DNA from: an uncultured Candidatus Saccharibacteria bacterium
GTDB lineage: Bacteria > Patescibacteriota > Minisyncoccia > UBA6257 > 1-14-0-10-40-38
Length of the DNA stretch: 64,000 nucleotides
Assembly (NCBI GenBank): GCA_964543265.1
Contig: CAZIWN010000001.1
Span: 232,977 to 296,976, forward strand
Reading direction: 5' to 3'
This document shows positions 4,993 to 28,064 of this stretch, piece by piece; position 1 is the stretch's first letter; the number at the start of each line of letters is the position of its first letter. The notes beneath the pieces were generated by a model. It was not told the origin of the DNA. It made no database searches and worked only from the letters and a program-made list of their open reading frames with translations. Position numbers and translations under genes: made by a program.

Positions 4993-5580
4993 ATGAAAAA
5001 AATAAAAACAATATTATTTGTATCGTTTGGGGTAATTTTCGCCTCAATAATAATAGCCAAAGCTTTCACTGAACCAATCAACACATCAATAAATCAAAGT
5101 ATTAAGGTTCCAATTAATATTGGACAATCTCCTCAATTTAAAGAGGGAGGATTGGGTGTAAACTCTGGTAAAGCTGATAATGGATTAATTATAGTAAATA
5201 CAACATCTCCAGGAGCAGAGGGTTTTGGTATCGGAGTTAAGTCTCCGTCAGAAAAACTGCAAGTAGAAGACGGAAACATCAGAATCACTAACGGAAACAT
5301 AGTGACCCCCATTAGCGGATCGGGAATTATAGATAGTTATCTTACGGCAACCACAACAAGCACATCAACAATGCAATGGTCAAATATTGCTTGGCTTAGC
5401 ATCCCAAGAGTAGACATAGTAACTGGAAGTGGAGCAAATTGTCTTAAAATTTGGCCAAGTTGCCCAGCTGGTTGGACAGAATATTCTCAAGAAATTTTCA
5501 GTGACACCTGCGCTTTATATGATGGAACATATAAATATATGGCTACTCGCACTTGTTATCAAAATTTCAACCCAAACTAA
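4993..5580 (+). CDS. secreted hypothetical protein, paralog of the previous gene
   Basis: Signal peptide. Motif GIGVKSPSEKLQVEDGNIRI. C-terminal Cys pattern CLKIWPSCPAGW...C..C. Only 3 bp from the previous gene. Confidence 0.5.
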   Translation: MKKIKTILFVSFGVIFASIIIAKAFTEPINTSINQSIKVPINIGQSPQFKEGGLGVNSGKADNGLIIVNTTSPGAEGFGIGVKSPSEKLQVEDGNIRITNGNIVTPISGSGIIDSYLTATTTSTSTMQWSNIAWLSIPRVDIVTGSGANCLKIWPSCPAGWTEYSQEIFSDTCALYDGTYKYMATRTCYQNFNPN

Positions 5581-5617
5581 ACAATATAAAGCTTTTGTTT
5601 GAGTATTTATTATAAAA

Positions 5618-19184: not shown

Positions 19185-19628
19185 TTATTTCTTTCCGTCA
19201 GCCTTCTTAGTCTCCTCTAAAGATCTATAAACAGAGCCCAAAACACCATTAATAAATTTTCCGGCATTCGGTCCAGCAAAATTCTTAGCAATCTCTATTG
19301 CCTCGTTAATAGCAACCTTTTCTGGCACTTCTTTTTTATCTTCAAAAACTAATTCATAAACACCAATTCTTAAGGCGTTTCTATCAACTAAAGAAATCTG
19401 CTCTAAAGGCCATTCACTAGCAGCTTTTCTAATAATATTATCTATCTCATTAAGATGAGTAACTATGCCGTTGATTAATCTCCAAGCAAAATCTGGCTCA
19501 TCAACACCATCGGCAAATTCTTTTAAATTTCTATCTAATATTTTTACCAAGTCTTCTCTGCGATCATAAAAATCCCACTCATAGAGAGATTGGAGAACCA
19601 CAGAGCGAATCAATTGGCGAGTTGCCAT
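19185..19628 (-). CDS. nusB: transcription antitermination factor NusB
   Basis: 147-aa all-helical NusB-like protein in its conserved neighbourhood. Confidence 0.8.
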   Translation of the reverse strand: MATRQLIRSVVLQSLYEWDFYDRREDLVKILDRNLKEFADGVDEPDFAWRLINGIVTHLNEIDNIIRKAASEWPLEQISLVDRNALRIGVYELVFEDKKEVPEKVAINEAIEIAKNFAGPNAGKFINGVLGSVYRSLEETKKADGKK

Positions 19629-19872: not shown

Positions 19873-19975
19873 ATTTTTTAATTTTTAAAATTTTATAAAC
19901 AAATTAAGCGATTTACAAAGAATAACTCAACTTTTTCAAAAAGTCCAGCCTATTTACAACAATCACTCACAACCA

Positions 19976-20004
19976 TTGACAATCTAATATTTTTCTGCTA
20001 GCAT
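19976..20004 (+). promoter_or_regulatory. sigma70-like promoter TTGACA-N17-TAGCAT for the GC-rich ORF
   Basis: TTGACA at 19976-19981 and TAGCAT at 19999-20004. SD aaggggaaaaga lies before the ATG at 20057. Confidence 0.45.
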
Positions 20005-20056
20005 ATAGCACAGTACCAGTTAAGAAGGGGAAAACCAAAGGCATAAGGGGAAAAGA

Positions 20057-20491
20057 ATGGACAGCGCAACCGCACCTCTTTCGACGACCCGTTTCGATCG
20101 GACCGGCTTCCAGTTCGACGTGAATTCCGAGATGCAAGAAAGCGTCTTCGACCTCGTCGAAGGCGCCCTGAATCGTGACGGCGAAGTGCGGGCAGAAGGA
20201 ATGCCCGACGAGATCGCCACGATCTCGGAAGCGCACATCTTCGCGGGCGAAGAAGGTCGAGTTCCGGCCACGCTCGAAGAAGCGATGAGCTTCGTCGAGC
20301 GCAACACGACAATCGCAGGTCACTGCGTGGTCGTAGCAACCGGAACCCAGACCTTCCACGGCGGAGAGTTTTTCGTCTTCGCGATTCGCAAGCACGAACG
20401 CGCAGACAAGACCGGCTTCGTCGTGACGACGATCCCGCTCACGAGCACGTGGGCGCGCCACTACAAGGTGGCGCACCTCTCAGCCACCTGA
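20057..20491 (+). CDS. hypothetical acidic 144-aa protein in a GC-rich (~60% GC) islet
   Basis: Only this frame and strand has a promoter, SD and downstream terminator. The three overlapping minus-strand ORFs are high-GC artefacts. Confidence 0.5.
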   Translation: MDSATAPLSTTRFDRTGFQFDVNSEMQESVFDLVEGALNRDGEVRAEGMPDEIATISEAHIFAGEEGRVPATLEEAMSFVERNTTIAGHCVVVATGTQTFHGGEFFVFAIRKHERADKTGFVVTTIPLTSTWARHYKVAHLSAT

Positions 20492-20504
20492 CCTGACCCC
20501 CCAA

Positions 20505-20566
20505 GCCCCGACACTAGAGCCTCTCGCGCACCGCGCGGAGCTCTAGCTGTCGGGGCTTCTTTTTTT
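20505..20566 (+). terminator. long GC-rich compound hairpin plus T-run after the GC-islet ORF
   Basis: gccccgacactagagcctctcgcgcaccgcgcggagctctagctgtcggggc then ttcttttttt. Confidence 0.7.
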
Positions 20567-20655
20567 ACAAAAAAACTTTGTATTTTTCCACTGACTAAAA
20601 TAGAATAAGAGTATTAATCTTAGAAAAATACCAAAATATTAATATTTTTAACAAA

Positions 20656-20718
20656 GACAAGGCGTTTTTGCGAAGCTGTATCAAGCAATGCGGATACAGC
20701 GAGTAAAAAGAACGCAGT
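20656..20718 (+). repeat. intergenic structured repeat, copy 4 (short subfamily), immediately upstream of dnaE
   Basis: gacAAGGCGTTTTTGCGAAGCTGTATCAAGCAATGCGGATACAGCGAGTAAAAAGAACGCAGTA. Its internal ATG is in frame with dnaE and creates a spurious N-terminal extension in the ORF track. Confidence 0.75.
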
Positions 20719-20747
20719 ATTTGTTAGTAAAGATTAATATTAAACCA

Positions 20748-27526: not shown

Positions 27527-27628
27527 AAAATCGTTATGTAGAAGTATAGAAAAAAAACAAACCCTAAACAAGTAAAATAAAAAACAAACCCGGTCGCCTG
27601 ATTTCTCAAGCTACCGGGTTTTAGATCA

Positions 27629-27654
27629 GATCAGCGGATTCTCACCCGCTGATC
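27629..27654. repeat. GC-rich stem-loop with 9-bp perfect stem (gatcagcgg ... ccgctgatc)
   Basis: Read directly. Sits at the left edge of the GC-rich islet. Confidence 0.7.
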
Positions 27655-27924
27655 ACGGACAGATGCATGCATCTGTCCGCCACCGAAAGAAGACCTGCCC
27701 TGACGAATCGTCGTCGTCCGATCGGGACGAACAGAGCACCTGAGACACCGACCAGCCACGAGCCGTCGGCTACAGGCCGGACAGTTGTCCCCTCGAGGGT
27801 TCACGAACGCCACCGGCGTCAGAAACGCCTCGAACGGCACCCGCCTCTCTGGACGCTTCTTCTCGTCGCACGGAATCGCCCCGCCACCAGCAAGCGACGC
27901 CGCAAGCATTCCCACAAGCATCAT
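27631..27924 (-). CDS. small (97 aa) protein with hydrophobic N-terminus and CxxC..CxxC zinc-ribbon, in a ~62% GC islet
   Basis: Strong SD GGGAGGAG 8 nt before the ATG. CPACS...CLRC pair. The opposite-strand ORFs are considered artefacts. Confidence 0.4.
   Translation of the reverse strand: MMLVGMLAASLAGGGAIPCDEKKRPERRVPFEAFLTPVAFVNPRGDNCPACSRRLVAGRCLRCSVRPDRTTTIRQGRSSFGGGQMHASVRDQRVRIR
27657..27678. repeat. 22-bp perfect palindrome ggacagatgcatgcatctgtcc
   Basis: Read directly. Centre is TGCATGCA. Confidence 0.8.
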
Positions 27925-28064
27925 CTGCCTTCTCCTCCCGTTAAAGAAAAGTGCTAAAAAACATTATAAAACTTTTAAAGATATAAATCAAAATTAAATT
28001 TGCCTTAGAAAAAATATAGGCATACCATTATTTCAGCACCACAAAACCAAAAAAGGAGAATGTT

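Follow-up and report, generated by a model that had tools for sequence, protein, structure and literature searches.

The rpmF-dnaE cassette

The DNA under study is a 64,000-nt stretch of contig CAZIWN010000001.1 (positions 232,977 to 296,976), hereafter called the window, from the genome of a Candidate Phyla Radiation (CPR) bacterium. Between the genes rpmF and dnaE it carries a small GC-rich gene, here termed the islet, which together with a promoter and a terminator of its own forms an autonomous single-gene cassette (Table 1). On one side it is flanked by minus-strand genes for RNase III, NusB and bL32 (rpmF), on the other by the plus-strand gene for DnaE, with bL32 and DnaE assigned by Pfam; the genes of ThrRS and GatB are located nearby. 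An initial annotation of this DNA had described such a cassette between rpmF and dnaE, and all the elements which it named were found where it had placed them, namely the TTGACA-N17-TAGCAT promoter, a strong Shine-Dalgarno (SD) sequence and a long GC-rich terminator hairpin followed by a run of T residues.

Table 1 Features of the cassette and its surroundings in the window (CDS, coding sequence; GC3, GC content at third codon positions; ORF, open reading frame)
Feature	Position	Strand	Basis and remarks
Promoter, sigma-70 type, TTGACA-17-TAGCAT with extended -10 (TGc)	19976-20004	+	Scan, 10/12 matches, -10 preceded by TG
5' leader, in which the box AAGGGGAAAA occurs twice (20025-20034 and 20045-20054)	20005-20056	+	Sequence
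Islet CDS, 144-aa acidic orphan protein, hairpin-dense	20057-20491	+	60.9% GC, GC3 0.745, coding signature
Intrinsic terminator, imperfect hairpin with a stem of ~24 bp, then T7	20503-20566	+	Folding
Promoter-like site of the divergent rpmF, TTGTAA-17-TAAAAT, at the left border of the insertion slot	19890-19918	-	Promoter scan
11-nt near-repeat bracketing the cassette, TTTACAAAGAA and TTTACAAAAAA	19912-19922 and 20564-20574		10/11 identical (repeat scan, family D5)
Second GC-rich mini-gene, unrelated, same architecture	27578-27957	-	ORF 27631-27924, 97 aa, between gatB and a deaminase gene

The expression signals of the cassette are conserved among the five variants that were recovered, including that of the window. 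The promoter stretch ATTGACAATCTAATA-N-TTTTCTG-N-TAG is invariant in all five. The second AAGGGGAAAA box of the leader is the SD sequence and ends 2 nt before the ATG. The terminator hairpin (20503-20558; free energy -43.7 kcal/mol, z = -8.4) was kept in 5/5 variants with 24 pairs, three of which are compensatory pair positions. In three pairwise comparisons between lineages the islet CDS had the lowest nucleotide identity of the neighbourhood (82%, 69% and 72%). The spacer from rpmF to the ATG (19873-20056), which comprises promoter and leader, was 85-89% identical and the terminator 89-96%, matching or exceeding the identity of housekeeping coding sequences (84-90%).

Composition and integrity of the GC-rich block

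The islet is foreign in composition. Its GC content compares with 34.95% for the window and is the highest 435-bp value found in it (z = 6.2 against all other positions). The block 20040-20560 has 61.6% GC and the wider span delimited in the initial annotation (19976-20566) 58.0%. A maximal-segment scan placed the GC-rich segment at 20059-20556 (498 bp, 62.7% GC); the block therefore extends from the ATG to the foot of the terminator hairpin. Both edges are sharp, promoter and leader are host-like in composition, and only the CDS and the terminator are GC-rich and foreign-like. The GC contents at the three codon positions are 0.61, 0.47 and 0.745 (GC1, GC2 and GC3), the last of these compared with 0.274 ± 0.053 in the 63 other genes of the window (z = 9.0). 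The codon adaptation index, built from the window's own genes, was likewise deviant (z = -5.6), as was the tetranucleotide distance (z = 12.6), so that the three checks proposed in the initial annotation all agreed with its claim of a non-uniform, foreign composition. At the protein level, the fraction of FYMINK residues (Phe, Tyr, Met, Ile, Asn, Lys) was 0.19 compared with 0.335 in the host, and that of GARP residues (Gly, Ala, Arg, Pro) 0.28 compared with 0.20.

Sharp GC boundaries would also be produced by an assembly chimera or by contamination from a GC-rich organism, and chimerism had been named as a concern in the initial annotation. Both rpmF-islet-dnaE junctions recurred, identically, in at least seven assemblies that are independent of one another and stem from different samples and pipelines: two contigs from ENA, with lengths of 52.8 and 15.6 kb (the ENA assemblies being ERZ27280317 and ERZ27280321), Logan assemblies of five runs (ERR5863125, DRR736439, SRR12487045, SRR26991424 and ERR14789940) and one GenBank metagenome-assembled genome from Lake Baikal (SIBX01000007). 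Diverged variants lie at the same site as well. Chimerism and contamination are excluded by these reproduced junctions and diverged copies, and an artefact of this kind would be extraordinary.

Coding nature and gene product

The islet protein of 144 aa has an isoelectric point of 5.03 and a grand average of hydropathy of -0.16, as expected from the initial annotation, which had announced one acidic protein on the plus strand. Its five variants, P0001 (window), P0002, P0003, P0004 and P0005, are 143-144 aa long and show 100, 78, 81, 74 and 53% amino acid identity. The homologous loci in other genomes are designated here by L numbers, among them L001, L006, L007 and L008. Substitutions were most frequent at codon position 3, followed by positions 1 and 2 (49, 21 and 10, respectively, between the window and L001), and the ratio of nonsynonymous to synonymous substitution rates (dN/dS, omega) was 0.19-0.41 among variants. 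Every indel comprised whole codons, and the ORF and its length were preserved down to 53% amino acid identity. Conservation is strong over the C-terminal 40 residues, L008 included, the copy of which is annotated in GenBank as a hypothetical protein. Judged by this pattern of sequence change, the islet is truly protein-coding.

Structured RNAs are usually GC-rich in AT-rich genomes. A non-coding structured RNA gene with an accidental ORF would fit the occurrence of such an island, GC-rich against an AT-rich background and equipped with a promoter and a terminator, and also the strong folding of the locus described below. Such a gene is very improbable in view of the three-periodic substitutions, the dN/dS of 0.19-0.41, the whole-codon indels and the maintained ORF length. 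Rfam furthermore returned nothing at the gathering threshold and no more than noise at E <= 1, and the pairing showed no G·U-specific signal.

Three overlapping minus-strand ORFs had been taken for artefacts of the high GC content in the initial annotation, and comparison with the homologues bears this out: the long antisense ORF is open in the window and in L008 and evolves with an omega of ~1, and in the two remaining frames on that strand the homologues contain stop codons.

Searches with the islet protein returned no match in Pfam (E <= 10), PHROGs, NCBIfam or a PDB profile search. PADLOC defence models gave only marginal 'E2' matches in one of the five members (E = 0.004 and 0.027) without partner genes, and an anti-phage defence system was dismissed on these grounds. 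A type I toxin-antitoxin locus was likewise rejected, given an acidic, hydrophilic product of 144 aa and the absence of an antisense promoter-like site within or behind the CDS. The two halves of the protein do not align, which argues against an internal duplication. AlphaFold2 models built from alignments of four and five sequences had a mean predicted local distance difference test (pLDDT) score of 48.8 and 38.4 and thus no confident fold, and when the better model was compared by Foldseek with PDB and BFVD, no entry had E < 0.08 or a template modelling score > 0.32. The product is small, acidic, cytoplasmic and fast-evolving and appears to be strongly expressed.

The protein-homology search suggested in the initial annotation was carried out on collections drawn from about 15 billion proteins. 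An exhaustive HMMER profile search of 1.84 billion cluster representatives retrieved the islet family, which forms one cluster at 50% identity and is confined to the clade, and a single weak match outside it (P0006, E = 3.5e-5). P0006 is a protein of 1987 aa from a Joint Genome Institute (JGI) metagenome (3300059473) and is composed of Big_2 Ig-like repeats. The islet profile aligned to 11/11 of these repeats in one register, with 52 bits in total, and hhalign gave a probability of 38% against a single sequence and 69% against the repeat profile (islet residues 25-81). F-x-L...N-[RK]-D-G...S...I-A-x-I-S, a motif of Big_2 (PF02368), recurs in islet residues ~25-81, in register with the 11 repeats. 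By eye, the L008 variant, the most divergent one, fits the repeat motif best. Unlike Big_2 proteins, the islet protein is below Pfam detection, single-copy and without signal peptide, it has a probable helical insertion, and its C-terminal half is without counterpart. The N-terminal half may be a degenerate Big_2/Ig-like domain, which we regard as a lead.

A family without relatives could also have arisen de novo or by overprinting, if foreign GC-rich DNA, either non-coding or a gene read in a different frame or on the opposite strand, came to lie beside a host promoter and a chance ORF in it became a selected, translated gene. This would account for a protein that forms a single cluster among 1.84 billion representatives and for a host-like promoter and leader next to a foreign-like CDS and terminator. 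The long open antisense frames illustrate how readily ORFs arise in DNA of this kind. The relaxed omega of 0.2-0.4 and the fast divergence are typical of young genes, and the missing confident AlphaFold fold would fit too. The ORFs in alternative frames, in contrast, are without Pfam match, and the order GC3 > GC1 > GC2 already corresponds to a mature coding frame, one derived from a GC-rich genome. The conserved C-terminal 40 residues and the weak, register-consistent similarity to Big_2 argue for descent from a real domain. We therefore regard an origin de novo or by overprinting as improbable.

Host clade and distribution

A NusB-based scan over one genome per species of the Genome Taxonomy Database yielded 64 loci, all from Patescibacteria. 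The nearest relative was Candidatus Paceibacterota Baikal-deep-G188 (L008; NusB identity 97%), and this was the only one of the 64 nusB loci with the islet gene; 63/63 others were without it, including all lineages with a NusB identity <= 73%. The five variants are all located at the same site and restricted to one narrow clade of Paceibacterota.

In those relatives in which rpmF and dnaE have stayed adjacent, the gap between them is occupied by rnhB (RNase HII) on the rpmF strand, sometimes together with a second gene, and in L029 it is empty (143 bp). The composition was not deviant in any of these gaps. The gene rnhB was observed in this position in 28 loci among L009-L071 (e.g. L044, 5075-5677, and L047, 5199-5780). 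It was not found in the 64-kb window, whose slot spans 19873-20747, nor in L001 or L008. Since relatives carry rnhB or an empty gap where the clade carries the cassette, the slot was, as far as gene order can tell, remodelled in the ancestor of the islet-bearing clade.

Age, inheritance and loss of GC

The number of synonymous substitutions per synonymous site (dS) between lineages was 0.64-1.15 for the islet and 0.6-1.3 for neighbouring genes. At synonymous third positions, the window differed from L006, L007 and L001 by 0.22, 0.21 and 0.27 in the islet and by 0.30, 0.32 and 0.33 in the flanks, without significance for islet versus flanks. These values are consistent with vertical co-inheritance of the islet with the genome. 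The acquisition is not recent, the gene having diverged together with its genome to near-saturation of synonymous sites. The omega of the neighbouring genes (0.03-0.05) was far below that of the islet in the same comparison (0.19-0.39); on these estimates, the neighbours are under purifying selection five to ten times as strong as that on the islet.

The GC3 of the variants ranges from 0.75 in the window down to 0.61 and 0.57. Among polarised third-position changes in the four close copies, those from strong (G or C) to weak (A or T) bases outnumbered the reverse changes by 25 to 9 (p = 0.009). This excess shows that the islet is losing GC. Polarisation of singletons with L008 as outgroup was too sparse for use. 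An F81 clock was calibrated on 1561 four-fold degenerate sites of the host, 40% of which differed (GC content at such sites, GC4, 0.32). Under this clock the present GC4 values of 0.73 and 0.61 require ancestral values of ~0.94 and ~0.76. Neutral decay is barely sufficient for this, which points to a very GC-rich donor and to an acquisition shortly before the clade radiated.

Hairpin density and a second GC-rich mini-gene

The islet CDS is exceptionally dense in hairpins. Its minimum free energy (MFE) was -195.2 kcal/mol compared with -161.6 ± 5.6 kcal/mol in dinucleotide shuffles (z = -6.0), and the z values of the five variants were -5.9, -3.3, -2.4, -3.7 and -2.0. Host genes ranged from +0.1 to -1.6, and 19 GC-rich control coding sequences of relatives (50-63% GC) reached -0.59 ± 0.81 with a minimum of -1.68, so that a generic trait of GC-rich coding sequences is ruled out. 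The excess also persisted in synonymous shuffles with protein and codon usage held fixed (z = -4.6, -3.3, -3.6 and -2.1), and these, together with codon permutation, rule out a by-product of codon composition. The CDS of the window contains 13 perfect stems of at least 6 bp, compared with 1.2-1.8 expected. As 70 of the 122 consensus pairs link codon positions 1-3, 2-2 or 3-1, the hairpins are largely built from in-frame reverse-complement codons.

The window contains one other long GC-rich segment (27645-27903, 64.9% GC), which belongs to a second mini-gene 7 kb away (Table 1); the phenomenon is therefore not unique to the rpmF-dnaE locus. The annotation of the source genome lacks a gene call for its ORF. 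The protein has an N-terminal hydrophobic segment and a zinc-ribbon-like CPxC...RC motif, and the expression signals comprise an SD sequence GGAGG, a promoter TTGATT-17-TATAAT (read by eye) and a terminator hairpin at ~27578-27621 (-24.1 kcal/mol, z = -5.2). L001 holds a homologue (19256-19567) in the same place and the same frame with whole-codon indels, and no further relatives of the protein were found. The two proteins have the hydrophobic segment and the CPxC...RC motif in common and are 41% identical, in contrast to 92-97% identity in housekeeping proteins of both hosts. The second islet showed a hairpin excess as well (z = -3.3 and -2.5).

The main alternative to a foreign gene in decay is that the GC content of the islet, whatever its origin, has been maintained by selection on dense nucleic-acid structure in the transcript or the DNA. 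The high GC content would then be a functional property and not only a relic that has escaped amelioration. Possible reasons would be that structure stabilises the mRNA, that it keeps Rho or RNases away from a foreign transcript rich in C, or that the locus acts both as RNA and through its protein. The folding excess of all five variants and of the second islet would be expected in this case, as would its survival of synonymous shuffles and codon permutation and its absence from host genes and the GC-rich controls. Compensatory double changes point in the same direction, with 15 pairs compared with 6.7 ± 2.1 in shuffles (0/500) and 3-6 in slid controls, and in the consensus structure third positions varied less in stems than in loops (38% versus 56%, p = 0.036). 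Maintenance by structure would also explain why neutral decay demands a GC4 that equals or surpasses the maximum possible.

Several results speak against it. The stem/loop comparison weakened to p = 0.10 with the unbiased MFE structure derived from the window only, the RNAalifold covariation term was unfavourable (+6.3), and many pairs are broken in L008. Pairing specific to the sense RNA was rejected: single changes leading to G·U and A·C were similarly frequent (27 versus 24, p = 0.78). The antisense strand folds equally well (z = -5.3), and without any strand asymmetry nothing ties the pairing to the sense RNA. Unpaired third positions still have 64% GC compared with a host GC3 of 27%, so structure alone cannot explain the GC content of the islet, and the net flux from strong to weak bases means that GC is being lost. 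The comparison involves only five sequences, and the structure was derived from the same five. Structure may slow the loss of GC, but as the explanation for the composition of the islet we consider it unlikely, if well worth keeping in mind.

With two such genes in one window, GC-rich hairpin-dense mini-genes might even constitute a distinct class of element in AT-rich CPR genomes, in which selection on structure stalls amelioration. Each member would consist of a single fast-evolving orphan ORF, a host-type promoter and an oversized terminator, and two unrelated examples lie within 8 kb here. The advantage under selection might again be protection of a C-rich transcript of foreign origin against Rho or RNases, or a combined role as RNA and protein. 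This proposal is speculative, and we have rather little confidence in it.

Origin of the cassette

Taken together, the islet is probably a moron-like, horizontally acquired accessory gene, that is, an old, partly ameliorated orphan xenologue; we hold this view with some reserve. Its horizontal origin, the kind of donor and its function we infer as follows. In the common ancestor of a narrow clade of Paceibacterota, a single ORF from a very GC-rich donor would have entered the divergent rpmF-dnaE slot, become an autonomous transcription unit and reached fixation ahead of the radiation of the clade. Transcription would start at the strong promoter of host type, TTGACA-17-TGcTAGCAT, and the strong SD sequence would serve translation. 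The hairpin with its stem of ~24 bp and the T-run would halt read-through into dnaE and thus insulate dnaE from the promoter of the cassette. Since its acquisition, the gene would have been inherited vertically with slow loss of GC (amelioration) under weak purifying selection, a degree of constraint that is expected of a lineage-specific accessory protein. Such an accessory function is suggested by a small, acidic, cytoplasmic, fast-evolving and apparently strongly expressed protein, and we suppose a role in symbiont-host or phage conflict, not in core metabolism.

Some observations weigh against this interpretation. No outside homologue of the islet protein was found in the collections searched, which drew on about 15 billion proteins, and the cassette has no integrase, no tRNA nearby and no convincing repeat scar. 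The synonymous divergence of the L008 islet exceeds that of its flanks (0.49 versus 0.34, p = 0.012). By DnaE, L001 and L008 are sisters (97% amino acid identity, dS 0.62), and their islet proteins are 55% identical (L008, 5122-5553, minus strand; L001, 10001-10432). This over-divergence points either to faster evolution in one lineage or to a replaced allele, exchanged through the conserved flanks that hold promoter and terminator. For the window and L008 the ancestral GC4 needed exceeds 1, and neutral amelioration is only just sufficient. The low-pLDDT models (49 and 38) allow no structural inference on the function of the islet. Finally, the hairpin excess, with z values of -2 to -6, shared with the second islet and absent from the 19 GC-rich controls, is not predicted by simple horizontal gene transfer.

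The initial annotation had considered transfer from a high-GC host or phage, should the organism be an episymbiont. CPR bacteria, or Patescibacteria, are thought to be episymbionts with tiny, streamlined genomes. The organism is a CPR bacterium (Candidatus Paceibacterota), which makes an episymbiotic lifestyle plausible; this part of the premise stands. No donor, be it host, phage or plasmid, was identified among the protein, phage, plasmid, IMG/VR and JGI metagenome collections. In particular, tblastn against phage and plasmid records, scans of JGI metagenomes and IMG/VR with back-translated protein patterns, and scans of metagenome and viral collections with DNA patterns of the promoter/leader and the terminator gave no hits. 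A repeated cassette module or repeat family was not found in the window. Horizontal gene transfer into Patescibacteria is documented (PMC12455944).

Morons are defined as independent transcription units that bring along a promoter and a terminator and deviate in GC content (PMC3594210). Similar to the morons of HK97- and HK022-type phages, the cassette is a single ORF with its own sigma-70 promoter and intrinsic terminator, lies between two conserved genes, deviates in GC content (61% versus 35%) and is missing at that position in relatives. Unlike them, it resides among core chromosomal genes (rpmF and dnaE) with no PHROGs match or phage genes nearby, and it has been inherited vertically in a cellular lineage until synonymous sites were near saturation.

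Within what is known as the Lawrence-Ochman framework, single-gene islets or ORFan xenologues reportedly undergo amelioration. The islet resembles such genes in its atypical GC content, codon usage and tetranucleotides, its patchy distribution, the decay of GC and the relaxed constraint. It differs from them in that no outside donor homologue, mobility genes or tRNA and attachment scars were found in the searches made, in a retention of GC3 at the limit of neutral decay and in its exceptional hairpin density.

Palindrome-rich elements inside or as coding sequence are known from AT-rich genomes as the Rickettsia palindromic elements and the GC clusters of yeast mitochondria. Like these, both islets are GC-rich, hairpin-forming and ORF-compatible in an AT-rich genome; unlike these, they are single-copy, non-repetitive and syntenic and are under purifying selection at the protein level.

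A gene which was acquired, provided with a strong promoter and long kept in a streamlined genome likely matters for the lifestyle of its bearer, and the composition of the islet could in principle point to the host of the CPR bacterium. With its sharp edges, conserved expression module and five diverged alleles, the cassette is a clean and datable example. The hairpin density of two unrelated islets raises the question whether nucleic-acid structure can slow the compositional assimilation of foreign genes. If it does not, the cassette is an ordinary orphan xenologue.

Further features of the intergenic region

The region of the divergent promoter-like site of rpmF is nearly invariant in four variants. 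The 11-nt near-repeat TTTACAAAGAA/TTTACAAAAAA that brackets the cassette could, with low confidence, be a target-site duplication; being AT-rich and not conserved in L007, it may have arisen by chance.

In the leader, both AAGGGGAAAA boxes were kept in all variants, despite a 20-nt hairpin, AAGGCTATGAAAATAGCCTT, between them in L008 (~5562-5609, minus strand). Their retention around this insertion suggests a standby or regulatory site.

The 5' untranslated region of dnaE contains a hairpin, GCTGTATC-N10-GATACAGC (window ~20686-20715). It is gone in L008, where 132 nt of the spacer are deleted, and covaries in L007 (GCAATAC...GTATTGC). This hairpin may be a cis-regulatory element for dnaE.

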